NCBI GenBank assembly: GCA_963514005.1
Contig: OY740789.1
Location: 1,054,001 to 1,118,000, forward strand
Source of the DNA: Raja brachyura
Lineage: Eukaryota
Direction of reading: 5' to 3'
DNA: 64,000 nucleotides
The notes under the pieces were generated by a model, which did no database searches, was not told where the DNA came from, and saw only the letters and a program-made list of their open reading frames with translations. The position numbers and the translations under genes were made by a program. Shown piece by piece: positions 1 through 58,300 of this stretch; the stretch's first letter is position 1; every line of letters starts with the position of its first letter.

Positions 1-1057
1 CTGAATAGGAAATGTGAGAGAGTAATGGTGGATGGCTGTTTGTCAGGGTGGAAGCCGGTGACTAGTGGGGTGCCTCAGGGATCTGTGTTGGGTCCACTGT
101 TGTTTGGCATGTACATTAATGATCTAGATGATGGGGTGGAAAATTGGATTAGTAAGTATGTAGATGATACTAAGATAGGTGGTGTTGGGGATAATGAAGT
201 AGATTTTCAAAGTCTACAGTGAGATTTAGGTCATTTGGAAGATTGGGCTGAAAGATGGTAGATGGAGTTTAATGCTGATAAGTGTGAGGTGCTACATCTT
301 GGCAGGACAAATCAAAATAGGACGTACATGGTAAATGGTAGCAAATTGAGGAATGCTGTGGAACAGAGGGATCTAGGAATAACTGTGCATAGTTCCCTGA
401 AGGTGGAATCGCATGTTGATAGGGTGGTAAAGAAAGGTTTTGTTGTGCTGGCCTTTATAAATCAGAGCATTGGGTATAGAAGTTGGGAAGTAATGTTAAA
501 ATTGTACAAGGCATTGGTGAGGCCAATTCTGGAGTATGGTGTACAATTTTGGTCGCTCAACTATAGGAAGGATGTCAACAAAATAGAGAGTACAGAGGAG
601 ATTTACTAGAATGTTGCCTGGGTTCCAGCAACTAAGTTACAGAGAAAGGTTGAACAAGTTGGGTCTTTATTCTTTGGAGCGCAGAAGGTTAAGGGGGGAC
701 TTGATTGAGGTCTTTTAAATGATGAAAGGGATAGACAGAGTTGACGTGGATAAGCTTTTCCCATTGAGGGTAGGGAAGATTCAAACAAGAGGGCATGACA
801 TGAGAATTAAGGGACAGAAGGTTTAGGGGTAACATGAGGGGGAACTTCTTTACTCAGAGAGTGGTAGCTGTGTGGAATGAGCTTCCAGTGGAAGTGGTGG
901 AGGCAGGATCGATTTTATCATTTAAAATAAATTGGATAGGTATATGCACGGGAAAGGAATGGAGGGTTAAGGTCTGAGTGCAAGTAGATGGGACTCGGGG
1001 AGAATAAGTGTTAGGCACAGACTAGAAGGGGCGAGATGGCCTGTTTCCGTGCTGTAA
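1..1057 (+). mobile_element. CR1 LINE 3' fragment (RT C-terminus and 3' UTR), pseudogenised
   Basis: Broken ORFs 25-222 and 262-609 carry CR1 RT motifs ([23 protein letters not shown]). Ends at ctgtttccgtgctgtaa, the same 3' end as the copies at 7152 and 52294. Confidence 0.93.
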
Positions 1058-1111
1058 GATAATGTGAGGGTTTTGGAGACATTAGTGACTATGAGACTGG
1101 TGTAAGTAAGG

Positions 1112-1516
1112 TCAGAATGAGGGGGTGTATGTGTCTTGTTTGGGGAACAATGCTTCACCTTCATACGTAATAATACTAGCCCAGAGGGGTCTTTCATTAA
1201 AGCCATGAAAGCTAAAAACATAAGGAGTGTGGTTAAAAGAAGCGTAGGGTTCAGACATCAATTGTTTGGCTGGCTGGAGAGCATGTTGGGGGGTTGGGGA
1301 GCATGGCTGATTAAAATTGGTTTGACCATTGGGGTCGCATTACTTGCAGTGGCAATAATGTTGTGCTGTGTTTTCCCCTGTATTAAGTTTCTCCTGGTGA
1401 AAGCTGCTGTGAAGCAACTACCAATGATTACGGGTGAAGATGAATCCGGCCCCCAAGGGAAGTGGACCTCAGTGATAGAATACTATGATGGAGAAGAAGT
1501 GTTAGGAAAATGTTAA
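1112..1516 (+). pseudogene. env: Retroviral envelope transmembrane-subunit remnant
   Basis: Reads SE*GGVCVLFGEQCFTFIRNNT: the end of the immunosuppressive domain plus a CX6CC motif degraded to CX6CF. This is followed by a W-rich membrane-proximal region, a hydrophobic TM segment (IGLTIGVALLAVAIMLCCVFPC) and a cytoplasmic tail. Confidence 0.82.
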
Positions 1517-2265
1517 ACAAAGTCTGTAAGGGAAGCTGGATCGTTTTTCCTGCCTCACGTAATGGGGGTGGGTTTTTGGTCCAGTTTCTCAGGGAGCCAG
1601 AGAAAGAACACTGCACAGCATTACACTAACTTAATTAGAAGAGCCTGCATTTTAGGGCTCTATGGGTGATTAGACCTGGGGGATGTGTGTGTGGTTTTCT
1701 TTGTCTTTTGAGACTGGGTGGAATCTCAGAGAAGGGAGTTGTATGGAAGTTATAGAAGACTTAATTAAAACATTTATCATAGCCAGCAAATGTCAGCTAT
1801 TTTACATAATCAGCTTATTGTACTCAGACTCGCATGACTGTTAGTTTTGCAGCACTTAATTAAAACGTTTATCTAGCAATTAATTAAAACATTTATCTAG
1901 TAACCAAGGCACTAAACAAGTTACTTATTTTTACTTTTGTACCTTTGTAATCTTAATAAATACATTTGTATCTTTGTGTGTAAACTTATAAACTAATATG
2001 TAACAGTGTAATATGGTTTGTGTGACCTTGGTTTTGGCTGAAGCATGATGGTGGCAGGACATAGCTGGGACATTAGAAGTTACATTTAAGGGTGGCGAGT
2101 GAAGGACGAGATATGGGGGGGAAATGTAACGTGCTGTAATTGTTAAATGGTTACGATAATGTGATGTTTTTGGAGACATTAGTGACTATGAGTGTGTAAG
2201 TGACTATTAGTGACTGGTGTAAATAAGATTGATCCAAGGTCGGATGTTAATGGTGGTGAGACAGA

Positions 2266-2775
2266 ATAGAAACATAGAAACATAGAAATTAGGTGCAGGA
2301 GGAGGCCATTCGGCCCTTCGAGCCTGCACCGCCATTCACTATGATCATGGCTGATCATCCAACTCAGTATCCCGTACCTGCCTTCTCTCCATACCCTCTG
2401 ATCCCCTTAGCCACAAGGGCCACATCTAACTCCCTCTTAAATATAGCCAATGAACTGGCCTCAACTACCCTCTGTGGCAGAGAGTTCCAGAGACCCACCA
2501 CTCTCTGTGTGAAAAAAGTCCTTCTCATCGGTCCTAAAGGATTTCCCCCTCATCCTTAAGCTGTGACCCCTTGCCTGGACCTCCCCAACATCGGGAACAA
2601 TCTTCCTGCATCTAGCCTGTCCAACCCCTTAAGAATTTAGTAAGTTTCTATAAGATCCCCTCTCAATCTCCTAAATTCTAGAGAGTATAAACCGAGTGTA
2701 TGCAGTCTTTGTTCATAAGACAGTCCTGACATCCCAGGAATCAGTCTGGTGAACCTTCTCTGCACTCCCTCTATG
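2266..2775 (-). mobile_element. 5'-truncated CR1 inserted in the ERV LTR
   Basis: IEGVQRRFTRLIPGMSGLSY on the minus strand; (tttctatg)n tail; gaata at 2264-2268 and 2775-2779. Confidence 0.9.
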
Positions 2776-3894
2776 AATATTAGAATTGAAGATAGATTGA
2801 TGCTAAAGGGGTACAGCATGCAAGATAATGCAGCAGAGATGGGGCTAGAAACTGTAATGAAAAGCTGCTTGTTTCTGGGATTCAGAGAGCAATTAGAGAA
2901 CGGACAGGTGGTGTCGTGTCTGAATGTTCCAGCTGATATTTGCAAATAAAGACTTTAGTCTTCTTGAAGAATTCTCCGTGACTGTGTCATCTTATCCAAA
3001 CTTTTAGTATCTGAACCACGACAATGATCGGCCATGATCACAGTGAATGGCGGTGCTGGCTCGAGGACCGAATGGCCTCCTCCTGCACCTATTGGATATT
3101 GTCTAAAATAGCAGAAACAATTTCATTTCCAACATTCCATTTCATTTCCCAATTTTTCATTTGTTTTACCGCAACTATTCGTGAAACTGCAAATTTTCAT
3201 TAGGAATTTACTAAATAGAGGGACATTGTGTTTAAATGGCATTGGGAGCCAGAGACAAACACAAATTCAAATTCTCTTTCTAATAAATCCATGGATTTAA
3301 ACGTTATTCCAAAATGATTACTGTTCCGAAATCTCCCCATTTTACATGCAACGCATCTTCCAAATGGGAAACTGCGGGATCATTGACATAAAACAGATTG
3401 GGTTAGGCAGGAACTGTGGAAAGACAAAACCAAGCAGTTTCCAGGTCGACTATCGTTGGGAGACTAAACCATGGCAAATTCCGTTTGGAGTCCAGATATA
3501 GCATAGAAATAGATCCTTCTGCCAACCAAATCAACGGCGACACACGCGTTCCACGTTATCGCACGGTCTCATCCACCCCTGACCCACCCGGGTCAATTCA
3601 CCTGCAACCCTGCACTATTTTGGTTGTGGGGGGGGGGGGGGGGGGGGGAGAAGCAGGGCACCAGTGAGAAACCACAGGGAGATCGCACACTTCTCACAGT
3701 CTGCACCTGATTTCGGGAACAAAGTCGGGTCCCTTGCTCTACCAGCTGTCATTCGGTTCCCCTCTATGTTCATTGTTCCAATAACCACCGAGCCATTCAT
3801 TGTTGAAATAAAGATGAATAACACACTACACGTGGATTACATAAATACCATTTCCATAGAATGTGAATTCCCTTCAGTTCCTCCGTCACCCTAG

Positions 3895-6016
3895 TTCCTC
3901 TGGGATGTCAGGACTTTCATATGAGGAAAGACTGGATAGACTCGGCTTGTAGTCGCTGGAATCTAGAAGATTGAGGGGGGATCTTATAGAAACTTACAAA
4001 ATTCTTAAGGGGTTGGACAGGCTAGATGCTGGAAGATTGTTCCCGATGTTGGGGGAGTCCAGAACAAGGAGTCACAGTTTAAGGATAAGGGGGAATTCCT
4101 TTAGGACTGAGATGAGGAAAACATTCTTTACACAGAGAGTGGTGAGTCTCTGGAATTCTCTGCCACTGAAGGCCAGTTCATTGGCTATATTTAAGAGGGC
4201 ATTAGATGTGGCCCTTGTGGCTAAAGGGATCGGGGGTATGGAGAGAAGGCAGGTACAGGATACTGAGTTGGATGATCAGCCATGATCACATTGAATGGTG
4301 GTGCAGGCTCGAAGGGCCGAATGGCCTACTCCTGCACCTATTTTTCTATGTTTCTATGTTTCTCTATCCCCTAATACACTCGGTACATTCTCATTCTATA
4401 GATCGAGTTTCACGGACTTAGCTTTGCTGTATCATTGGTTCACATGGCCAACTCATTGTACTTCAAGAGAGATGAAAAAAGTTGGAGTAACTCAGCGGGA
4501 CAGACAGAGTCACTCCAGCTTTGTGTCATTTGTCAGCATAAACCAGCACCAATCCACAGTTCCTTCCTATTCATTCTACTTCAAGATATATAACTGCTCA
4601 ATTCACGCTGCCGCTGAACCTTGCACTTCTGCTAGATGCTGGAAGATTGTTCCCGATGTTGGGGGAGTCCAGAACAAGGGGTCACAGTCTAAGGATAAGG
4701 GGGAATTCCTTTAGGACCGAGATGAGGAAAACATTCTTTACACAGAGAGTGGTGAGTCTCTGGAATTCTCTGCCTCAGAAGGTAGTTGAGGCCAGTTCAT
4801 TGACTATATTTAAGAGGGCGTTAGATGTGGCACTTGTGGCTAAAGGGATCAGGGGGTATGGAGAGAAGGCAGGTACGGGATACTGAGTTGGATGATCAGC
4901 CATGATCACATTGAATGGCGGTGCAGGCTCGAAGGGCTGAGTGGCCTACTCCTGCACCTATTTTCTATGTTTCTATGTTTTCTGTGTTTTGCTGCAAGAA
5001 ATGTTGACTTCTTCCATGCAAGTTTTGTTAGCAATTGGATGAAAGGTGACAAGGCGATTCCACCAATTAATACATACACTTTAGAAACTTGAACATTTTA
5101 CACCCAGGATCTATCCCTTTCTATCGCTTGTTTCATATGCGCTGAGAAGAAACAAACTGAGACAAAGTACCTGCTGTTGATCAGAAAATACATAGAAACA
5201 TAGAAACATAGGTGCAGGAGTAGGCCATTCGGCCCTTCGAGCCTGCACCGCCATTCAATGTGATCATGGCTGATCATCCAACTCAGTATCCCGTACCTGC
5301 CTTCTCTCCATACCCCCTGATCCCTTTAGCCACAAGGGCCACATCTAACTCCCTCTTAAATATAGCCAATGAACTGGCCTCAACTATCTTCTGTGGCAGA
5401 GAATTACAGAGACTCACCACTCTCTGTGTAAAGAATGTTTTCCTCATCTCGGTCCTAAAGGAATTCCCCCTTATCCTTAGACTGTGACCCCTTGTTCTGG
5501 ACTCTCCCAACATCGGGAACAATCTTCCTGCATCTGGCTTGTCCAACCCCTTAAGAATTTTGTAAGTTTCTATAAGATCCCCCCTCAATCTTCTAAATTC
5601 CAGCGAGTACAAGCCGAGTCTATCCAGTCTTTCCTCATATGAAAGTCCTGACATCCCAGGAATCAGTCTGGTGAATCTTCTCTGTACCCCCTCTATGGCA
5701 AGAATGTCTTTCCTCAGATTTGGAGACCAAAACTGTACGCAATACTCCAGGTGTGGCCTCACCAAAACCCTGTACAACTGCAGTAGAGCCTCCCTGCTCC
5801 TATACTCAAATCCTTTCGCTATGAATGCTAACATACCATTTGCTTTCTTCACTGCCTGCTGCACCTGCATGCCTACTTTCAATGACTGGTGTACCATGAC
5901 ACCCAGGTCTCGTTGCATCTCCCCTTTTCCTAATCTGCCACCATTCAGATAATAGTCTACCCTCATGTTTTTGCCACCAAAGTGGATAACCTCACATTTA
6001 TCCACATTATACTGCA
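3895..6016. mobile_element. Three 5'-truncated CR1 copies (3895-4362 +, 4630-4985 +, 5190-6016 -) in the presumptive J-C intron
   Basis: Near-identical C-terminal ORF ending GYGEKAGTGY, each with a (tttctatg)n tail. Confidence 0.9.
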
Positions 6017-6336
6017 ATGCTTAAAATACAGTTGGATGCATCGCAGACCACGGAAATCTCTAACAATTAGAAAGCTTAGTGAAAGCAAATTGATGCACAA
6101 TATTCCCACTAATTAGGAACTAAACCGCATCCGTTTCATAGTCAAAGGATGGAAAGTCAAGTTTAAATGGGGAATCTCACTGCAGCGGAATCACATAACA
6201 TTCTAAAGCAACATCGATCCAACGTTGCAATGAATGGGTAATTGATGTAGAAGAGCTATTGAATACAATTATTGGGAATATAGAGTAACATTACAAGTGG
6301 ATACATGTAGAGCCTGAATGGGATGAGCTTTCTTAC

Positions 6337-6708
6337 CGCTGGTGACCGTCAGCATGGTGCCCCCTCCCCAGTATTCAATGGCCATCCGGCCCACTGGTGT
6401 CCGTATCCCACAGTAATAGACAGCGGTGTCTTCCATCCTCAGCTCCCTGGCCGTCACCGTGAAGATATTATTCGAGTTGTCTGTGGAGGGAGTGAATCGG
6501 CTCTCTACCCCCGGAGCGAAGTACTTGATGAAAGCCGGACTGCGGTAGCGGAGCAGCCACTCCAGCCCTTGCCCGGGGACCAGGCGGATCAAAGACACAT
6601 GTTGGCTGCCAACACTGAACCCGCTGACTTTACAGGTCAGTGTGATGGAGCCTCCAGGGCGGGCGGTCTCTGTCTTGGGCTGAGTTAGAACGACACTGGA
6701 ATGGACAC
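6337..6708 (-). CDS. IGHV: Immunoglobulin heavy-chain pre-joined V(D)J exon (chondrichthyan VH, IgM-like framework; isotype not determinable)
   Basis: Acceptor ttgcAG|GT at 6708 and donor AGCG|GTAAGA at 6337; 372 nt, phase 1-1, open. Translation: (R)VHS-SVVLTQPKTETARPGGSITLTCKVSGFSVGSQHVSLIRLVPGQGLEWLLRYRSPAFIKYFAPGVESRFTPSTDNSNNIFTVTARELRMEDTAVYYC-GIRTPVGRMAIEY-WGGGTMLTVTS. Both canonical Cys, DTAVYYC and the J motif WGxG are present; no RSS between V and J. Confidence 0.96.
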
Positions 6709-6889
6709 CTGCAAGTTAAAAAAGGCATGAATGGATGGATGGCGAGGATGAAACAGTGACCATTGATCCCCACTCTAATTATCAAGAGGAAATACATTGG
6801 GCGGGTTCTACAGTGGGTAGAAGGGGAATGGCGGCGTGGAGATACCACTGAGGAACTTGAGTGAGGAATTTGTCCAACTCATTACTCAC

Positions 6890-6935
6890 GGACTATTAGC
6901 GCCAGGAACAGACTCAGTGAAACCGCCGACCTCAT
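6890..6935 (-). CDS. IGHV: Ig heavy-chain leader (signal peptide) exon
   Basis: ATG at 6935 gives MRSAVSLSLFLALIV plus 1 nt, then a GTGAGT donor. A 46-nt phase-1 exon typical of VH split leaders, joining the V exon in frame across a 181-nt intron. Confidence 0.93.
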
Positions 6936-7024
6936 CCCCGCTGGGACCTGGGACCCGGTTGTATCTGTACAGAACCTCGCAACAAACCAACTGCAAGGAA
7001 GTTGGATTTTGGACCCTCATGGAG

Positions 7025-7100
7025 AGAATTAAATACCCGGCAAAAGAGGGTGCGGCTGTGGGCGGGACTGGAAACCGAGTGGGGCAGCGGGCGGGGCTGA
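7025..7100 (-). promoter_or_regulatory. Putative VH proximal promoter
   Basis: TATTTAAT (minus, 7028-7035) about 95 nt upstream of the ATG; two GGGCGG boxes near 7060 and 7088. Confidence 0.45.
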
Positions 7101-7151
7101 GACACGGCTCCCAACTCAACAGCAAGATGCACTCACGCTTTCACACCTATT

Positions 7152-10076
7152 AACCATATAACCATATAACCATATAACAATTACAGCACGGAAACAGGCC
7201 TTCTCGGCCCTTCCAGTCTGTGCCGACCATTAATTTCCCCCTAGTCCCATCTACCTGCACTCAGACCATACCCCTCCATTCCCTTCCCGTCCATATACCT
7301 ATCCACTTTACTTTTAAATGTTAAAATCGATCCTGCCTCCACCACTTCGGCAGGAAGATCATTCCACACAGCCACCACTCTCTGAGTAAAGAAATTCCCC
7401 CTCATGTTACCCCTAAACTTCTGTCCCTTAATTCTCATGTCATGCCCTCTTGTTTGAATCTTCCCTACCCTCAATGGGAAAAGCTTATCCACGTCAACTC
7501 TGTCTATCCCTTTCATCATTTTGAAGACCTCAATCAAGTCCCCCCTTAACCTTCTGCGCTCCAAAGAATAAAGACCTAACTTGTTCAACTTTTCTCTGTA
7601 ACGTACTTGGTGGAACCCAGGCAACATTCTAGTAAATCTCCTCTGTACTCTCTCTATTTTGTTGACATCCTTCCAATAATTAGGCGACCAAAATTGTACA
7701 CCATACTCCAGAATTGGTCTTACCAATGCCTTGTACAATTTTAACATTACTTCCCTACTCCTATATTCAATGCTCTGATTTATAAAGGCCAGCACACCAA
7801 AAGCTTTCTTTACCACCCTACCTACATGCGATTCCACCTTCAGGGAACTATGCACAGTTATTCCTAGATCCCTCTGTTCCACAGCATTCCTCAATTCCCT
7901 ACCATTTACCATGTACGTCCTATTTTGATTTGTCCTGCCAAGATGTAGCACCTCACACTTATCAGCATTAAACTCCATCTGCCATCTTTCAGCCCATTCT
8001 TCCAAATGGTCCAAATCTCTCTGTAGACTTTGAAAATCTACTTCATTATCCACAGCACCACCTATCTTAGTATCATCTGCACACTTACTTATCCAATTTT
8101 CCACCCCATCATCTAGATCATTGATGTACATGACAAACAACAGTGGACCCAACACTGATCCCTGAGGCACCCCACTGGTCACCGGCTTCCACCCTGACAA
8201 ACAGCCATCCACCATTACTCTCTGGCATCTCCCATTCAACCACTGTTGAATCCATCTTGCTACTCCGCCATTAACACCCAAAGATTGAACCTTCTTAACC
8301 AACCTTCCATGGGGAACCTTGTCAAAGGCCTTACTGAAATCCATATAGACAACATCCACTGCTTTACCCTCATCAATTTCCCTTGTAACCTCTTCAAAAA
8401 ATTCAAGAAGGTTTGTCAAACATGACCTTCCAGGCACAAATCCATGTTGACTGCTCTTGACCAGACCCTGTTTATCCAGATGCTTATATATATTATCTCT
8501 AAGTATCCTTTCCATTAATTTGCCCACTACTGACATCAAACTAATAGGTCTATAATTGCTAGGTTTATTCTTTGAACCCTTTTTAAACAATGGAACAACA
8601 TGCGCAGTACGCCAATCCTCCGGCACTATTCCCGTTTCTAATGACATCTGAAATATTTCTGTCCTAGCCCCTGCTATTTCTACACTAACTTCCCTCAATG
8701 TCTTAGGGAATATCCTGTCAGGACCTGGAGACTTATCCACTTTTATATTTTTCAAAAGTGTCAGTACTTCCTCCTCTTTGAATCTCATAGTTTCCATAGC
8801 TACTCTACTTTTTTCCCTTACCTCACAGAGTTCAATATCTTTCTCCTTGGTGAATACCGAAGAAAATAAATTGTTCAATATCTCCCCCATCTCTTTTGGC
8901 TCTGCAGATAGCTGTCCATTCTGGCGCTCTAATGGTCCAATTTTATCCCTCGTTATCCTTTTGCTATTAATATAGCTGTAGAAACCCTTTGGATTTACTT
9001 TCACCTTTTTTGCCAAAGCAACCTCATATCTTCTTTTAGCTTTTCTAATTTCTTTCTTAAGATTCTTTTTACACTCTTTATACTTATCTAGCACCTCATT
9101 TACTCCATGCCTCCTATAAAAATTGTAGATATCTCTCTTTTTTCGAAACAAGTGTCCAATTTCCCTTGAAAACCATGGCTCTTTCCGATTTTTACTATTA
9201 CCTTTCAACCGAACAGGGACATAAAGATTCTGTACTCTTACAATTTCCCCTTTAAATGTCCTCCATTTCTCTTCTACATCCTTCCCATAAAACAAAATGT
9301 CCCAATTCACTCCTTTTAACACCTTACGCATTCCCTCAAAGTTAGCCTTTCTCCAATCAAAAATCTCAACCCTAGGTCCAGTTCTGACTCTCTCAATAAT
9401 TATATTGAAACTAATGGTATTGTGATCACTGGTCCCGAAGTGCTCACCAACGCATACCTCCGTCACCTGACCTGCCTCATTTCCTAACAGGAGGTCCAGC
9501 ACTGCCCCTTCTCTGGTCGATACCTCTATGTATTGCTGCAAAAAACTATCCTGCACACATTTAACAAACTCCAAACCATCCAGCCCATTTACAGAATGTG
9601 TTTCCCAGTCTATTTTTGGAAAATTGTAATCTCCCACAATCACTACCTTGTGCTTACTACTAATATTTGCTATCTCCTTACAAATTAGCTCTTCCAATTC
9701 TCGCTCCCCATTTGGCGGTCTATAATACACCCCTAAAAGTGTTGCTACACCATTCCCACTTCTCAGTTCCACCCAAATAGCCTCCATAGACAAGCTCTAA
9801 TCTATCCTGCCAAAGCACTGCTGTAATATCTTCTCTGACAAGCAATGCAACACCTCCACCTCTGGCCCCTCCAATTCTATCACACCTGAAGCAACGAAAT
9901 CCTGGAATATTTAGTTTCCAATCACAACCCTCCTGCAACCATGTTTCACTGATCGCCACAACATCATATTTCCAGGTGTCAATCCAGGCTCTAAGTTCAT
10001 CCACCTTTCTTACAATGCTCCTAGCATTAAAATATACACATTTTAGAAACCCACCATCCCTTATTCTCTGTTTATT
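7152..10076 (-). mobile_element. CR1 LINE with nearly complete ORF2 (APE endonuclease and RT), one frameshift
   Basis: ORF 9720-10130 (YFNARS, ISETWL) and ORF 7241-9793 (850 aa; [19 protein letters not shown]) are offset by a small deletion near 9795; (ccatataa)n tail at 7152-7180. Confidence 0.95.
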
Positions 10077-10631: not shown

Positions 10632-11254
10632 NNNNNNNNNNNNNNNNNNNNNNNNNNNNNNNNNNNNNNNNNNNNNNNNNNNNNNNNNNNNNNNNNNNNN
10701 NNNNNNNNNNNNNNNNNNNNNNNNNNNNNNNNNNNNNNNNNNNNNNNNNNNNNNNNNNNNNNNNNNNNNNNNNNNNNNNNNNNNNNNNNNNNNNNNNNNN
10801 NNNNNNNNNNNNNNNNNNNNNNNNNNNNNNNNNNNNNNNNNNNNNNNNNNNNNNNNNNNNNNNNNNNNNNNNNNNNNNNNNNNNNNNNNNNNNNNNNNNN
10901 NNNNNNNNNNNNNNNNNNNNNNNNNNNNNNNNNNNNNNNNNNNNNNNNNNNNNNNNNNNNNNNNNNNNNNNNNNNNNNNNNNNNNNNNNNNNNNNNNNNN
11001 NNNNNNNNNNNNNNNNNNNNNNNNNNNNNNNNNNNNNNNNNNNNNNNNNNNNNNNNNNNNNNNNNNNNNNNNNNNNNNNNNNNNNNNNNNNNNNNNNNNN
11101 NNNNNNNNNNNNNNNNNNNNNNNNNNNNNNNNNNNNNNNNNNNNNNNNNNNNNNNNNNNNNNNNNNNNNNNNNNNNNNNNNNNNNNNNNNNNNNNNNNNN
11201 NNNNNNNNNNNNNNNNNNNNNNNNNNNNNNNNNNNNNNNNNNNNNNNNNNNNNN
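10632..11254. other. Assembly gap (623 N)
   Basis: Run of N. Confidence 1.
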
Positions 11255-47866: not shown

Positions 47867-50800
47867 ATGTCTTGCAGCAAGGACATGGATGGGAGTTTCA
47901 AGGGCCGGAGGATGTCTGGACGAATTCGACGGCCAACAGTTCCGGGGCCATTACCATCGGCAGTACCTGCAACGCAGGCCGGGACTCAGGCGGAGATGTG
48001 GGTAAGCCCTGTGTTTACAGGTCCAAATCCGCCAGCACACCACAGCTCGGAGGAGTTCGACGAGGAGAAGTGTGGTGTGCCGCCAGAGCAGGGGGACCCT
48101 GCCATGGCAGTCAGGTCGTCAGCGGGCTCGCTGGCGACCTCGAGCAGGGCACGTGCCGTTGCACGGCCTGTTCCACTCAGCCCTCCGAGAAGGGGGAGGG
48201 CAGGAGCCCAGAAGCCTAACCCTGTTAGGGCTAAGGCATTGCCTGCCGCGGAGGAGCGGTCAGGTTCCAGGGCGAGACCCGGGGCGGCTGTGAGGTCCAG
48301 CCGGCACACCCCGACTCTCGACGCCGGGACGGGTCGGTTGAGTCGGGTCTCGTCACGGTCGCCGAGCCCCCCATGGATGGGTGGGCGAGACCATGCGTCG
48401 GCAAGGTCCACGATGTGGGCAGCCGGCAAGACTGCGCGGGCCCCAGGCAGCCATGCTTCGGCTGGTGCCGACACCACGCCGCAAGTGTCCTTAGTGGCAG
48501 CGGCTTCAGCTCCCGCTAAACGGAGGCGGTTGAACACGCCCGCGCAGGAATCGCGCAGTTTCGCCTCGGCGGCTGTCAGCGACAACTACCGGCACCGGCA
48601 GGGCCTCGACGAGGTGCGGGCCGATGACAGGAGCCCGGTTTTCTTTTCAGAGCCGGAGGACTCCGACCACCTGAGTGTTCAGGGTGAAGGGCGTATTGAC
48701 CGTATGGAGCGGCTGCTGGAGCTCCTGCTTCAACGTCAACAACAGCAGGGCAGCAACAGGCACAGGGCGTCTTCACCAACATCCACTATCAGCCTGGAGC
48801 AGCAGGAGGAGGAGGTTCTGGTGGATCCTGTACCACCTCCGTTGGAGGTGCCAGCGGAGGAACTCTTGGATGTGGCGACCAAATTCGCGGCCCCACATTC
48901 ATCTGGTCTTCCTCTAAATACAAAGCTGGCAGCCACAGTGGACTTTCTTAATAATCAGGTGCTGCAGGAAGAAGTCCTCATCCAGGCTATGAGCTGTCAC
49001 AAGGCTCCATCAAACTGCAACTCCCTCAACGTGCCTGTGGTCAATACGCCAATATGGGGCAACATCAGTGCGGCTATCCGTCAACAGGAGCTAAAATTGC
49101 AGCGGATCCTGAAACTCCTCACGGCCGGTATTACCGCCTTTGCGCGGTCGGTGGACAGGGACGAACTGAATTTGGACCAGGAAGATGCTCTGGCCCTATT
49201 GTGCGCGACCCAGCACGAAATCACGGGACCAATATCCTGGCGGGGAAATTTGCAAAGGCCACTGGGGAGACTTTAAACTAGAATGGTTGGGGCGAGGGAT
49301 GCAAATAGCAAAAGCTAGTAGACAGAATGGGAGGCAGGAAGCAGGAAAGGGAAGCACTCGGACACAAGAGGAGAAAGAAAAAAAAGGAAATAAACAGAGA
49401 ATAAGAGATGAGGGGTTTCTTAAATGTGCATATTTTAATGCTAGGAGCATTGTAAGAAAGGTGGATGAGCTTAGAGTCTGGATAGACACCTGGAAGTATG
49501 ATGTTGTGGCGATCAGTGAAACATGGTTGCAGGAGGGCTGTGATTGGAAACTAAATATTCCAGGATTTCGTTGCTTCAGGTGTGATAGAATTGGAGGGGC
49601 AAGAGGTGGAGGTGTTGCATTGCTAGTCAGGGAAGATATTACAGCAGTGCTTTGGCAGGATAGATTGGAGGGCTCATCTAGGGAGGCTATTTGGGTGGAA
49701 CTGAGAAGTGGGAAAGGTGTAGCAACACTTATAGGGGTATATTATAGACCGCCAAATGGGGAACGAGAATTGGAAGAGCAAATATGTAAAGAGATAGCAG
49801 ATATTAGTAGTAAGCACAAGGTAGTGATTGTGGGAGATTTCAACTTTCCACACATAGACTGGGAAACACATTCTGTAAATGGGCTGGATGGTTTGGAGTT
49901 TGTAAAATGTGTGCAGGATAGTTTTTTGCAGCAATACATAGAGGTGCCTACTAGAGGAGGGGCAGTGCTGGACCTCCTGTTAGGAAATGAGACGGGACAG
50001 GTGGCGGAGGTATGCGTTGGGGAGCACTTCGGGTCCAGTGATCACAATACTATTAGTTTCAATATAATTATGGAGAAGGACAGAACTGGGTCTAGGGTTG
50101 AGATTTTTGATTGGAGAAAGGCTAACTTTAACGAGATGCGAGATGATTTAAAAGGAGTGAACTGGGACATTTTGTTTTATGGGAAAGATGTAGAGGAGAA
50201 ATGGAGGACATTTAAAGGGGAAATTGTAAGAGTACAAAATCTTTATGTTCCTGTTCGGTTGAAAGGAACCAGTAAAAATTGGAAAGAGCCCTGGCTTTTC
50301 AAGGGAAATTGGACATCTTGTTTGGAAAAAGAGGGAGATCTAAAATAATTATAGGTAGCATGAAGTAAATGATGTGCTTGAGGAGTATAAGGAATGTAAA
50401 AAGAATCTAAAGAAAGAAATTAGAAAAGCTAAAAGAAGATATGAGGATGCTTTGGCAAGTAAGGTGAAAGTAAATCCAAAGGGTTTCTACAGCTATGTTA
50501 ATAGCAAAAGGATAACAAGGGATAAAATTGGTCCATTGGAGAGACCGAGTGGACAGCTATCTGCAGAGCCAAAAGAGATGGGGGAGATATTGAACAATTT
50601 CTTTTCTTCGGTATTCACCAAGGAGAAGGATATTGAATTATGTGAGGTAAGGGAAACTAGTAGAGTAGCTATGGATACTATGAGTTTCAAAGTAAAAGAA
50701 GTACTGGCACTTTTGAAAAATATAAAAGTGGATAAGTCTCCAGGTCCTGACAGGATATTCCCTAGGACATTGAGGGAAGTTAGTGTAGAAATAGCCGGGG

Positions 50801-52699
50801 CTATGACAGAAATATTTCAAATGTCATTAGAAACTGGAATAGTCCCCGAGGATTGGCGTACTGCGCATGTTGTTCCATTGTTTAAAAAGGGTTCTAAAAG
50901 TAAACCTAGCAATTATAGACCGGTTAGTTTGACTTCAGTGGTGGGCAAATTAATGGAAAAGATACTTAGAGATAATATGTATAAGTATCTGGATAAAGAG
51001 GGTCTAATTAGGAACAGTCAACATGGATTTATGCCTGGAAGGTCATGTTTGACTAATCTTCTTGAATTTTTTGAAGAGGTTACTAGGGAAATTGACAAGG
51101 GTAAAGCAGTGGATGTTGTCTATATGGACTTCAGTAAGGCCTTTGACAAGGTTCCTCATGGAAGGTTGGTTAAGAAGGTTCAACTGTTTTGTATAAATGC
51201 AGGAATAGCAAGATGGATTCAACAGTGGCTGAATGGGAGAAGCCAGAGGGTAATGGTGGATGTCTGTTTGTCGGGTTGGAGGCAGGTGACTAGTGGGGTG
51301 CCTCAGGGATCTGTGTTGGGTCCTTTGTTGTTTGTCATGTACATCAATGATCTGGATGAAGTGGTGGTAAATTGGATTAGTAAGTATGCAGATGATACCA
51401 AGATAGGGGGTGTTGTGGATAATGAAGAGGATTTCCAAAGTCTACAGAGTGATTTAGGCCAGTTGGAAAAATGGGCTGAAAGATGGCAGATGGAGTTTAA
51501 TGCTGATAAATGTGAGGTGCTACACCTTGGCAGGACAAATCAAAATAGGACGTACATGGTAAACGGTAGGGAATTGAAAAATACAGTTGAACAGAGGGAT
51601 CTGGGAATAACCGTGCATAGTTCCTTGAAGGTAGAATCTCATATAGATAGGGTGGTAAAGAAAGCTTTTGGTATGCTAGCCTTTATAAATCAGAGCATTG
51701 AGTATAGAAGCTGGGATGTAATGTTAAAATTGTACAAGACGTTGGTGAGACCAAATCTGGAGTATGGTGTACAATTTTGGTCGCCCAATTATAGGAAGGA
51801 TGTCAACAAAATAGAGAGGGTACAGAGGAGATTTACTAGAATGTTGCCTGGGTTTCAACAGCTAAGTTACAGAGATAGGTTGAATAAGTTAGGTCTTTAT
51901 TCTCTGGAGCGCAGAAGGTTAAGGGGGGACTTGATAGAGGTCTTTAAAATGATGAGAGGGATAGACAGAGTTAATGTGGACAAGCTTTTCCCTTTGAGAA
52001 TAGGGAAGATTCAAACAAGAGGACATGACTTTAGAATTAAGGGACAGAGGTTTAGGGGTAACATGAGGGGGAACTTCTTTACTCAGAGAGTGGTAGCGGT
52101 GTGGAATGAGCTTCCAGTGGAAGTGGTGGCGGCAGGTTCGTTGGTATCATTTAAAAATAAATTGGATAGGCATATGGATGAGAAGGGTATGGAGGGTTAT
52201 GGTATGAGTGCAGGCAGGTGGGACTAAGGGAAAAAAGTTGTTCGGCACGGACTTGAAGGGCCGAGATGGCCTGTTTCCGTGCTGTAATTGTTATATCAAC
52301 GGGTTTCGCAAAAACAGCATCCGCCCAGCACTCAACCCGAAGTTTGCAGGATTGTGCAAACCACCGCCGCCGCCGCCGCCCCGTCAGCTCTTTGATGAGG
52401 ACCTCTCGAAGAGAGTCAAAGAGCTTGACGAACAAGCCAAAACGGTGGGGATCATGCGCTCTCAGAGTGCCCCCACACCGTCAGGCTCAAAAGCTCCATA
52501 CATTCGCTCACGAGGGTCGGCCAGTGCCTCGACGAGGACTCACCCTCTAGCTCCACAACGACAACAGCACCAGAACCAGCACCAAGGGTCTTTTTTAGGA
52601 CAGGGTCGACAGAGACCTTGGTGGAAATCGAAGACGCCGCGCCCTCAAGCCAACCCAGCACCTCCACGGCCACCCACACGTGTCAAGGACCGCCGGTAA
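47867..52699 (+). pseudogene. gag: DIRS ORF1 (gag-like), split by a CR1 insertion
   Basis: 47867-49223 joined to 52299-52699 restores the frame (...ALALLCATQHEI-NGFRKNSIRPALNPKFAGLC...LFDEDL...), giving 585 aa. Confidence 0.85.
49224..52294 (+). mobile_element. CR1 LINE (ORF2 with a frameshift and stops near 50295-50358) inserted in DIRS gag
   Basis: ORFs 49185-50348 (APE) and 50374-52227 (RT, YADD); atca duplicated at 49220-49223 and 52295-52298. Confidence 0.95.
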
Positions 52700-52701
52700 C
52701 C

Positions 52702-54630
52702 ACGGAGGTGAGGGGGTCTGGTTCTCTTTTTTCTCTTTGTTTAACTTCCCAGGTTGGTGGTCGTTTACGGTTGTTTTTGGGTGCATGGGGTAATTTTACT
52801 GGTGATGAGTATGTGTTGCGGAATATTCAGGGGCATAAAATTGAGTTTATTAATGACGACATTCCTCCATCCCAGCACATGCCTGGTCGTACGTTTAAAT
52901 TGTCTGCTGCAGAACAGGCAGCAGGTTATAAGGAAATTTTAAGTCTGGAACAGAAGGGTGTGGTTGAGAAAACGGTGCATGAGCCAATTGAATTTGTTTC
53001 GAACATATTTACCAGACCGAAGAAGGATGGAGGCTGTCGTGTCATTATTGATCTAACCCGTTTGAATACGTTTGTAACATATACTCATTTTAAAATGGAT
53101 ACGTTTGAAACAGCCAAATCATTGATTTCTCATGGTTGCTTTATGGCATGCATCGATTTGAGGGATGCATATTATTCAGTATCCATCCAGAAATATGATA
53201 GAAGGTTTTTGAAATTTATCTGGATGGGGCAACTTTGGCAGTATAAGGCTTTGCCTAATGGGCTCACTACAGCCCCTAGATTGTTCACTAAATTGGTGAA
53301 GCCAATCATGGCTTATTTGAGACAACGACATCATATAGTTATGGCCTATTTAGATGATGTCTTTATTGTGGGCCACACCCTGCAATTGGCTGAACAGGGT
53401 GTTGCAGCTGCTGTCAATATATTTCAACAATTAGGATTCATTGTCCATCCAGAGAAATCGAAGTTCTGCCCTGCCCAGGTAATTAATTACCTTGGGTTCA
53501 CGGTGAACTCAATGAGCATGAGGATAACTATACCAATTAACAAAATTGAGGAAGTCACTCAGGTGTGCAGAGATTTAATTGGCACCAATATACCATCGAT
53601 TCGGCATACAGCCACAGTAATTGGCAAGCTAGTGGCTTTGTTTCCGGCAGCACGATATGGACCTTTGCATTATCAGAATTTGCAAAGAGCTAAAATTACT
53701 GCGTTAAAACGGAACGCTGGTCATTATGATCGATCAATGCAGCTGCCGTCCGAAGCGATAACTGAGTTGCAATGGTGGGTGTGTCACATTAGCAACTCAT
53801 TCAAGCCTGTTAGGGAGGCTAATCCGGTGGTATATTTACAGACTGATGCAAGCTCCAATGGCTGGGGAGCTACTGATAATTGCTCTAGTTGTGGGGGAAA
53901 AGGGGACACCCTTGAGTCATCGATGTTGTTGACTCAAGGGATTAACTATTTGGAGTTGCTGGCAGCATTCCACGGACTTCGTGCATATTGTTCCAAGCTT
54001 GTTGGAGCACACGTCCGTCTCCAAATAGACAACACCACAGCTGTGGCATATTTAAACCATATGGGTGGTACCAGGTCAGTTTCGTGTGACAAATTGGCTA
54101 ACTCAATTTGGCTCTGGTGTGTTCAAAGAGACATTTGGATTTCAGCTACCTATTTGCCAGGTGAGCTTAACACTGTGGCGGACACCAGGTCACGCAAATT
54201 TAATGACAATATTGAATGGATGTTGCATCCTGAGATTTTTTCTAAAGTCACAGCCAAATTTGGTAAACCGAACATTGACCTTTTTGCGTCACGGTTGAAC
54301 CATCAGGTACCAGCCTACGTTTCATGGGAACCAAATCCTGGGGCAATAGCGCTAGATGCATTCTCGCTGGACTGGGGGAATTGGTTTTTCTATGCCTTCC
54401 CCCCGTTTTGCCTCATCAGTCGGGTATTGCGAAAGATTCAGGCAGATGCTGCCAAGGGCATCCTTATTATACCCGACTGGCCCACACAGCCTTGGTATCC
54501 GGTGGTCTTTGACATGCTCAACGAACCTTGGGTCCTTTTGGAGGGTTGCCCACAATTGGTTACTCACCCTGTCTCAGGGGAGCCACATCCCTGCCATGGC
54601 TATTTAAATTTGTTGGCTTGCAGGTTCTGA
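52702..54630 (+). CDS. pol: DIRS reverse transcriptase, RNase H and adenine-methyltransferase-like polyprotein
   Basis: Open frame: VGGRL, IDLRDAY, LPNGL, YLDD (RT); TDAS, INYLEL, IDNTTA, NTVAD (RNase H); IDLFAS...YAFPPF (MTase-like). Start uncertain; see findings. Confidence 0.92.
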   Translation, partial: TEVRGSGSLFSLCLTSQVGGRLRLFLGAWGNFTGDEYVLRNIQGHKIEFINDDIPPSQHMPGRTFKLSAAEQAAGYKEILSLEQKGVVEKTVHEPIEFVSNIFTRPKKDGGCRVIIDLTRLNTFVTYTHFKMDTFETAKSLISHGCFMACIDLRDAYYSVSIQKYDRRFLKFIWMGQLWQYKALPNGLTTAPRLFTKLVKPIMAYLRQRHHIVMAYLDDVFIVGHTLQLAEQGVAAAVNIFQQLGFIVHPEKSKFCPAQVINYLGFTVNSMSMRITIPINKIEEVTQVCRDLIGTNIPSIRHTATVIGKLVALFPAARYGPLHYQNLQRAKITALKRNAGHYDRSMQLPSEAITELQWWVCHISNSFKPVREANPVVYLQTDASSNGWGATDNCSSCGGKGDTLESSMLLTQGINYLELLAAFHGLRAYCSKLVGAHVRLQIDNTTAVAYLNHMGGTRSVSCDKLANSIWLWCVQRDIWISATYLPGELNTVADTRSRKFNDNIEWMLHPEIFSKVTAKFGKPNIDLFASRLNHQVPAYVSWEPNPGAIALDAFSLDWGNWFFYAFPPFCLISRVLRKIQADAAKGILIIPDWPTQPWYPVVFDMLNEPWVLLEGCPQLVTHPVSGEPHPCHGYLNLLACRF

Positions 54631-55862: not shown

Positions 55863-56826
55863 CCCTCCTCGCCCAACCCTCAATCACCTTCATCTGGTAA
55901 TCTTAGTCAATTCAATCATACTATGCGAAGTCATTTCTATTGTTGGTTCTGTGATTCCACGCCGCTACTTTGAAGTATGTCGAGCATGCGCGCCGGCGGG
56001 CTCTTCACGAAATCCCTCACTTCGACTCCTCATAAAATAAAAATCAACCTTCGAACTGGTAAGTTCTCATTCAATCTTACTATTCTCTGCCACAGAAGGT
56101 AGTTGAGGCCAGTTCATTGGCTATATTTAAGAGGGTGTTAGATGTGGCACTTGTGGCTAAAGGGATCAGGGGGTATGGAGAGAAGGCAGGTACGGGATAC
56201 TGAGTTGGATGATCAGCCATGATCACATTGAATGGCGGTGCAGGCTCGAAGGGCCGAATGGCCTACTCCTGCACCTATTTTTCTATGTTTCTATGTTTCT
56301 ATTTGGCACATCAAGTATACTCCGCCAGTTAGTAATGGCTGATCTATCTCTATCTCCCAACCCCAATCGCCTGTCTTCTCCCCATCACTCCTTACATCCG
56401 TACTAATCGAGAATCTATCAACCTCTTCCTAAATATATCTATTCACTTCGCCTCCACAGCCTTAAGTGGCAAGGCATTCCACAGATGTTCCACCCTGCAA
56501 CTTACAAAAACCCTTGTCGTCTCCTTCCTCATGGAACGTCCTTTAATTCTGATGCTAGAACGTCTGTTCGTAAACTCTCCCACTAGTGGACCAGGAGTCC
56601 CTTCGGCCCATCTGTAAGTTTTCCCTCTGCTAGTATTAAACCTCACCCCAGTATTTTTCTCCCTTCCTTCATTTGCTCCCTGTGAGATCCAGGCCAGGAT
56701 AGACCTTCCTCCTTCATTGCTGTGATCTTCAGAAAAAGATGAAAAATGTCTAAAATTGATTCTCTACCTGCTCCCTCTTCTCTCTCACAGTCTCTCATCT
56801 GTTTTGGGCAGAATTTCGGGCAGTTT

Positions 56827-58122
56827 CTGAGCTGCCAGCCCACCAGGCCTGAGTGACTGAGCTGCCAGCCCACCAGGCCTGAGTGACTGAGCTGCCAGCC
56901 CACCAGGCCTGAGTGACTGAGCTGCCAGCCCACCAGGCCTGAGTGACTGAGCTGCCAGCCCACCAGGCCTGAGTGACTGAGCTGCCAGCCCACCAGGCCT
57001 GAGTGACTGAGCTGCCAGCCCACCAGGCCTGAGTGACTGAGCTGCCAGCCCACCAGGCCTGAGTGACTGAGCTGCCAGCCCACCAGGCCTGAGTGACTGA
57101 GCTGCCAGCCCACCAGGCCTGAGTGACTGAGCTCCAACCCACCAGGCCTGAGTGACTGAGCTTCTAGCCCAATATGCCTGAGTGACTGAGCTGCTAGCCC
57201 ACCAGGCCTGAGTGACTGAGCTTCTAGCCCAATATGCCTGAGTGACTGAGCTGCCAGCCCACCAGGCCTGAGTGACTGAGCTGGCAGCCAACCAGGCCTG
57301 AGTGACTGAGCTGCCAGCCCACCAGGCCTGAGTGACTGAGCTGCCAGCCCACCAGGCCTGAGTGACTGAGCTCCAACCCACCAGGCCTGAGTGACTGAGC
57401 TGCCAGCCCACCAGACCTGAGTGACTGAGCTCCAACCCACCAGGCCTGAGTGACTGAGCTTCTAGCCCAATATGCCTGAGTGACTGAGCTGCCAGCCCAC
57501 CAGGCCTGAGTGACTGAGCTGCCAGCCCACCAGGCCTGAGTGACTGAGCTGCCAGCCCACCAGGCCTGAGTGACTGAGCTGCCAGCCCACCAGGCCTGAG
57601 TGACTGAGCTGCCAGCCAACCAGGCCTGAGTGACTGAGCTTCTAGCCCAATATGCCTGAGTGACTGAGCTGCTAGCCCACCAGGCCTGAGTGACTGAGCT
57701 CTAACCCACCAGGCCTGAGTGACTGAGCTTCTAGCCCAATATGCCTGAGTGACTGAGCTGCTAGCCCACCAGGCCTGAGTGACTGAGCTGCCAGCCCACC
57801 AGGCCAGAGTGACTGAGCTGCCAGCCCACCAGGCCTGAGTGACTGAGCTGCCAGCCAACCAGGCCTGAGTGACTGAGCTGCCAGCCCACCAGGCCTGAGT
57901 GACTGAGCTGCCAGTCCACCAGGCCTGAGTGACTGAGCTGCCAGCCAACCAGGCCTGAGTGACTGAGCTGCCAGCCCACCAGGCCTGAGTGACTGAGCTG
58001 CCAGCCCACCAGGCCTGAGTGACTGAGCTGCCAGCCAACCAGCCCTGAGTGACTGAGCTGCCAGCCCACCAGGCTTGAGTGACTGAGTTGCCAGCCCACC
58101 ATGCCTGAGTGACTGAGCTGCC
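56827..58122. repeat. 30-bp minisatellite, about 43 units
   Basis: Unit gagtgactgagctgccagcccaccaggcct, with recurring 29-bp (ctccaaccc) and cttctagcccaatatg variants. Confidence 0.97.
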
Positions 58123-58300
58123 GGGGTGGAGGGCTTGGGGCTTGGGGCTTGGGGGGTGTGGGGGTGTGGGGGTGTGGGGGTGTGGGAGGGGGAGAATGGT
58201 GGGGGAGGGGGGTGAGGGACAGTGTGTATGTGGGATTGGGGTGGGATGGGGAGGGGTGTGTGAGGTAGGAGGAGGGTGTGGGAGGGAGGGGGTGTGTGGG
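58123..58300 (+). repeat. G-rich low-complexity tract with G-quadruplex potential
   Basis: Many G3-G6 runs with short loops (ggggctt and gggggtgt repeats). Confidence 0.85.

Follow-up and report, generated by a model that had tools for sequence, protein, structure and literature searches.

A complete IgM heavy-chain cluster with a likely germline-joined V-D1-D2-J exon in Raja brachyura

Introduction

Does an IgM gene whose V, D and J segments lie already fused in the assembled genome still supply an antibody chain, or is it drifting towards a pseudogene? The question is raised by positions 6337-6935 of a 64,000-nucleotide stretch of Raja brachyura DNA (contig OY740789.1, here C9; C9:1054001-1118000, referred to below as the window). 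Part- and fully germline-joined IgM clusters of cartilaginous fish are described in the accessible portions of several papers (PMC5192425, PMC4279169, PMC2435157). Germline-joined IgM has long been known, and C9 is an unusually intact further copy. A long-standing question is whether such joined heavy chains in sharks and skates serve a purpose or are mere relics, and nurse shark IgM1gj is the main positive case.

Structure of the cluster

The first-pass annotation of this stretch had described an in-frame leader, an intron and a fused VDJ exon with canonical splice sites and without RSS, and both translation and an RSS scan bear it out (Table 1). Leader and VDJ exon share one reading frame with zero stops, and the fused exon begins with V framework 1, includes the J motif WGGG and ends at the donor site. 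Its CDR3, GIRTPVGRMAIEY (6409-6371), is flanked by a Cys (6412-6410) and a Trp (6370-6368). The V domain is recognised as Pfam V-set (E=1e-14), and the best matches of its structure model (pLDDT 79) are antibody VH domains, with a TM of ~0.8. The Leu found in framework 2 in place of the usual Trp was considered as a defect and dismissed, since it is common to most paralogues. The scan found no RSS site in 6000-7200, against seven in each of three split control clusters, where the hits include the true V, D and J signals. Spacer DNA of a split V-D-D-J cluster had no match in C9:994001-1118000 (124 kb). On the 5' side, homology to the paralogues stops at a repeat at position 7154, and we take the motif TATTTAA (7035-7029) within this region to be TATA-like.

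Table 1. Features of the C9 cluster; positions are those of the window unless preceded by C9.
Feature	Position	Strand	Evidence
Promoter/5' region, common to paralogous clusters	6936-7154	minus	homology
Leader exon, 46 nt, MRSAVSLSLFLALIV, GTGAGT donor	6935-6890	minus	translation and splice site
Leader-V intron, 181 nt, GT-AG, TTGCAG acceptor	6889-6709	minus	splice sites
Fused V-D1-D2-J exon, 372 nt, open frame, ends in AGCG followed by GTAAGA at the J donor	6708-6337	minus	
V-D1 junction, 3 to 8 bases without V or D template (N region)	6401-6408	minus	
D1 core, 10/11 matches to germline D1	6390-6400	minus	
D2 core, 7/8 matches, 3' end untrimmed	6382-6389	minus	
Palindromic (P) addition to D2 end, 4 nt	6378-6381	minus	
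J-Cmu1 intron, 11.3 kb in total, part in the window	1-6336	minus	
Cmu1	C9:1049001-1048705	minus	open exon
Cmu2, 318 nt, open	C9:1044177-1043860	minus	AG/GT sites
Cmu3	C9:1036678-1036376	minus	open exon
Cmu4 with extended tailpiece	C9:1034729-1034311	minus	open exon
TM1, Ile-to-Asn in the membrane span	C9:1030478-1030351	minus	open exon
TM2	C9:1030227-1030219	minus	open exon

The 60 kb to the left of the window were examined for C exons, which the first-pass annotation had suggested would lie left of position 1, and Cmu1-4 and the TM exons were found there. The C9 locus is a complete IgM cluster, composed of leader, VDJ, Cmu1-4 and TM1-2. All eight coding exons are open, and their splice sites match those of the split paralogue C2a, including a shared GC donor after TM1. 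The lengths of the Cmu and TM exons equal those of the split C2 cluster, and the best PDB matches of Cmu4, tailpiece included, are Ig mu chains (E ~1e-45). The domain cysteines are all kept, as are the glycosylation sequons of C2a except one in Cmu2. Also kept are the Cmu1 Cys and most VH-VL interface residues. The gene spans 30.7 kb, compared with 13.5 kb in the colinear split C2 cluster, because of extra intron DNA, largely repeats; the J-Cmu1 intron, for example, is interrupted by insertions such as a LINE piece at 6022-5193. The gene had been described as intact amid decayed repeats; its intactness holds, but the repeats lie inside its introns as well and not just around it. No other V of the IgM V family was found on C9, and the locus lies near the contig end.

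Elsewhere in the window, two long open frames of 622 and 733 residues occupy ~50359-54627 on the plus strand. We take the former to be of LINE type and the latter to be of another retroelement type, both presumably mobile elements. Tandem repeats of ~30 bases, with open repetitive frames, form an array at ~56650-58300 on the minus strand, and a stretch of N (10632-11254) is found upstream of the gene among LINE frames.

The junction and the origin of the join

Germline D references drawn from 13 split clusters were used to dissect the junction. The ordered D1+D2 score of the C9 junction is 15, a value reached by 0/300 shuffles; the D-core scores of other joined loci are weaker, with 11/300 shuffles reaching that of L025, 24/300 that of L004 and 73/300 that of L006. 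Part of the untemplated V-D1 bases may be a mutated V end, and the last base of the P addition may be templated by J. In V(D)J chemistry, as set out in the available part of PMC2193156, P bases derive from hairpin opening by RAG and N bases from TdT. The combination of P bases, N bases and D cores in one junction thus argues for RAG/TdT joining.

The sister of C9 in the V tree is a locus on C47. The two are colinear in their upstream flank to ~5.8 kb, and the C47 junction is different and out of frame. The shared flank together with the different junctions makes it likely, as judged from the sequences, that the two loci were joined separately after their duplication. Transposition-like spread of the dispersed copies through a common 5' breakpoint was also considered and was not seen, as upstream homology runs for different lengths through repeats.

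The join in sequencing reads

The same join was present in public sequencing runs. Run X4 (sample S2, study P2) yielded a 163-nt contig matching 6297-6459 with 0 differences, which spans the junction and 40 nt of the J-C intron. In run X1 (sample S1) a contig matching 6194-6689, again with 0 differences, spans the junction into the J-C intron. S1 is possibly the source of the assembly. S1 and S2 belong to different studies under the same organism label, and they may come from one animal. The first-pass annotation had proposed looking for the junction in other material: S2 contains the identical join with its intron DNA, and no split version was seen. From the same junction in two samples, we consider it likely that the join is carried in the germ line.

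A second run from sample S1, X3, has zero depth over either intron. A 345-nt contig from this run is identical to 6658-6337, where the match ends at the J donor; beyond it stand 23 further letters, known by count. We infer from the read layout that X3 behaves like RNA. Only the last 7 bases of the C9 J recur in other J exons. Two of the 26 other Cmu1 exons, each belonging to a split cluster, begin with the same 33 bases as the C9 Cmu1. Together this means that a 31-mer contig of spliced message would end 23 bases into Cmu1. The same reasoning predicts the observed end of the X1 contig at 6689. The 5' end of the X3 contig (6658) differs from this genomic prediction (6689), and X3 has no cover over the 46-nt leader exon. 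The C9 message is likely spliced from J to Cmu1. A search of RNA for the exact CDR3 had been suggested as well; what it gave is an intron-free contig containing this CDR3, whose letters beyond the J donor fit Cmu1 by count. No run listed as RNA was found among the public runs carrying the sequence. Sixteen run rows from ten other organism labels share 0.06-0.08 of the sequence words, and X5, the sole such run assembled, yielded no junction-spanning contig at 92% likeness.

Joined and split loci across the genome

At least 27 V loci of this IgM family were found across the genome. Among these 27, 13 are split, with two D segments, five are part-joined (two V-D1, two D-J and one VD-DJ) and nine are fully joined. 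Three of the nine (C9, C24 and C15) are in frame with complete Cmu exons, while the other six are broken, five being out of frame and one lacking the second V cysteine. The split paralogues are ~85% identical to C9. This multicluster organisation is in itself indicative of a cartilaginous fish. Joined and part-joined forms recur as duplicated pairs or as a four-contig family with shared junctions, which argues that the joins are inherited. The full joins represent six or more separate events, and several contain additional bases at the junction; this genome-wide pattern suggests that RAG and TdT-type activity has recurred in the germ line of the lineage.

The distribution of the loci is uneven. 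Outside the two arrays (C2:150.3-151.1 Mb and C3:5.2-6.3 Mb), 10/10 V loci are joined (L001-L006, L020, L025, L026 and L028), nine of them fully and one as VD-DJ. Within the arrays, full joins are absent and 13/17 loci are split. Of nine dispersed loci measured, seven are found no further than 1.4 Mb from a contig end. Copies are not independent, and Fisher tests of joined state against position, which count duplicates separately, carry no weight here. Joins may be purged by homogenisation inside the arrays, or dispersal may be accompanied by RAG breaks.

Several individual loci deserve mention. L006 (C24:41.94-41.95 Mb) and L025 (C15:0.55 Mb) are in-frame joined IgM with complete Cmu exons and ordinary tails, and their CDR3s comprise 10 and 13 residues, respectively. 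L025, the most divergent, adjoins distant V exons arrayed over C15:0.67-1.5 Mb, possibly T-cell receptor genes. One D-less join with loss of the second V cysteine is present on four contigs (L002, L005, L026 and L028, at the ends of C4, C5, C17 and C2), at least three of its copies lying within 0.1 Mb of a contig end. The L028 copy has a junction grown as a short tandem repeat, and ~5 kb is inserted between its leader and V. L016 and L017, in the C3 array, are D-J joined with a V RSS apparently shortened by deletion, and they may be unable to complete rearrangement. Cmu exons without a V of this family in the upstream DNA examined occur at C35:31.56 Mb, C3:128.6 Mb, C15:59.04 Mb and C19:48.33 Mb. 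The C35 set is a divergent Cmu1-4 (Cmu1 51% identical), and at C3:128.6 Mb Cmu1, 2 and 4 are present with no match to Cmu3.

Tailpiece and membrane exon

The secreted tailpiece of the paralogues ends SCQ-stop-E-stop in 24/24 Cmu4 exons whose tail could be read; an additional fragment lacked a readable one. In C9, as read from the assembly alone, Leu codons replace both stops and a Cys codon follows further on, which gives SCQLELISSKCL-stop. The C9 tailpiece is thereby nine residues longer and carries a second Cys in the penultimate position. C9 has also lost the first AATAAA but retains the second. TM1 has Asn where 6/6 paralogues examined have Ile.

In neutral simulations both stops were open in 2-4% of cases, and open together with a penultimate Cys in 0.03-0.08%, in a test that was chosen post hoc. 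The penultimate tailpiece Cys of mammalian IgM links monomers and J chain, according to the part of PMC7709107 available, so by analogy the longer tail with two cysteines would likely alter polymer and J-chain assembly. The changes of tail and TM1 may represent specialisation towards the secreted form, or early decay. No comparable extended IgM tail was found in the literature searched, the coverage of which lay mostly outside subscription papers.

Constraint and mutation

The C exons of C9 have fewer private substitutions (52/1407 sites) than its non-coding DNA (548/8120; Fisher p=6e-6). The same deficit is observed in the out-of-frame loci on C47 (p=2e-3) and C30 (p=0.015) and is absent from the split C2a (p=0.38), which makes it a weak test of present function. 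In V, framework pN is 0.069 against a pS of 0.151. The CDR1+CDR2 codons of C9 differ most from the paralogue majority, with a pN of 0.39 against 0.15-0.35 in the 13 others tested. Germline hypermutation was considered and discarded, as non-coding divergence near V (6-8.5%) shows no excess over that far from it (4-8%), and tandem changes number 14/68 near V and 78/559 far from it. Protein searches, in a word-limited index, returned no cartilaginous-fish IgM with the C9 CDR3; the matches were V domains of bony fish, reptiles and mammals, 31-50% identical, and one shark IgW.

Alternative explanations

A single exon from V to J without RSS, solitary near a contig end, could also be a V exon of UrIg type that was never split, or a processed retrocopy. 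We regard either origin as practically negligible, since the D1 and D2 cores stand in order in the junction and the exon is so close to split paralogues. The gene has also retained its promoter and every intron, colinear with the split cluster, and the first-pass annotation was right to argue against a retrocopy. A somatic rearrangement of a B cell might have been assembled as genome, and the N and P bases do give the junction the look of a B-cell product. This is very unlikely, however, because an identical junction with its intron DNA occurs in a second sample from another study, the non-coding DNA near V has no footprint of hypermutation, and no split version of the C9 V was found in the genome. 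Neither a split locus in other reads nor a lack of C exons, the two outcomes that the first-pass annotation had named as speaking against its reading, came to light.

More weight has to be given to the view that the joined cluster is no longer needed and, while still transcribed from an intact promoter, is drifting into a pseudogene, the long tail and the TM change being its first lesions. This seems possible to us, though it is not the reading we favour. Most fully joined loci are already broken, and the introns of C9 have taken up many repeats. The dN/dS of its C exons against the paralogue majority is 0.86 (0.82 in the split clusters), and Cmu1 has an excess of replacement over silent changes (10.5:0.5 in C9; 14.5:1.5 in the broken C4 copy). 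Loss of the stops, the Ile-to-Asn change and loss of the first AATAAA may all be early lesions. Against decay, 1725 coding bases contain no frameshift or internal stop despite 6.7% private substitutions and 30 private deletions in the non-coding DNA. An unconstrained frame survived the whole branch in only 2/1500 simulations. An open frame is likely, however, if constraint ended late: survival rises to 14% when neutrality is confined to the last quarter of the branch and to 44% for its last tenth, and constraint on the exons therefore cannot be dated to after the join. The retention of the domain cysteines and of all but one sequon, and the rarity of the tail among neutral simulations in the post hoc test, also speak against decay. 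On balance, we think it probable that the germline-joined IgM of C9 is still used as a functional inborn chain.

Comparison with known systems

The joined IgM clusters of horn shark and skate (VDJ, VD-J and VD-DJ) have the same V-D1-D2-J-Cmu minilocus as C9, as far as the accessible parts of PMC5192425 and PMC2435157 describe them, and C9, fully joined and without RSS, likewise stands alongside split and part-joined paralogues. The excerpt of PMC2193156 reports that message of the horn shark joined heavy chains was not detected. In contrast to those chains, C9 has a likely spliced message and open frames in all exons, as well as the longer tail with its second Cys.

In nurse shark IgM1gj a fully germline-joined VDJ resides on a mu chain, as in C9; in the portions available of PMC5192425 and PMC4279169, IgM1gj is without Cmu2 and has three C domains, whereas the Cmu2 exon of C9 is intact. 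The first-pass annotation had drawn this comparison, which is apt for the germline joining but does not extend to the absence of Cmu2, as C9 has a 318-nt open exon. Judged by its exons, C9 is not IgM1gj. The C9 V falls within the V family of its own genome, so its join is likely independent of that of IgM1gj. IgM1gj is the dominant serum Ig of neonates, expressed in the epigonal organ, with a germline-joined sigma-2 light chain as its partner. By analogy, C9 may likewise work as an early ready-made antibody, and may have the innate-like role with fixed specificity that the first-pass annotation proposed.

Two further systems are relevant. The nurse shark NS4 light chains, as presented in the available part of PMC2193156, resemble the situation here in having several independent joins, hairpin P nucleotides, and in-frame genes as well as pseudogenes; the NS4 joints show little TdT activity, whereas the heavy-chain joint of C9 has 3 to 8 non-templated bases. 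UrIg/UrIg2 of elasmobranchs have, like C9, a non-rearranging antibody-like V exon. They are proposed never to have been split, in the sections available of PMC12227049, whereas the C9 V belongs to IgM, has been rejoined and contains D cores. Every type I light chain of skate is germline-joined, according to the accessible part of PMC2192082, and a wholly preset binding site would therefore be possible.

Conclusions

The events leading to the C9 product may be pictured as follows. In the germ line of an ancestor an IgM cluster was probably rearranged by RAG and TdT. The gene would be transcribed from its kept promoter, with J spliced to Cmu1, and a B cell could express the chain without rearranging it. 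The heavy chain would pair with a light chain, as the kept Cmu1 Cys and interface residues suggest. The product would be an antibody chain, mainly secreted, whose heavy-chain binding site is preformed. Its secreted form would end in the nine-residue-longer tail with two cysteines, by which polymer and J-chain assembly are predicted to be altered, while the TM1 Asn would make for a weaker membrane form. It is conceivable, though we hold it to be unlikely, that selection after the join built a secreted-only IgM with a fixed site through stop read-through, the penultimate Cys and a weaker anchor, as a second route to the role of IgM1gj. If so, an independently evolved inborn subclass would alter polymer assembly through its tail and not through deletion of a domain. 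For the old question of joined heavy chains, C9 offers a single-copy, fully mapped four-domain candidate, and its unique tags, the CDR3 and the tail peptide, make it traceable in message and protein.
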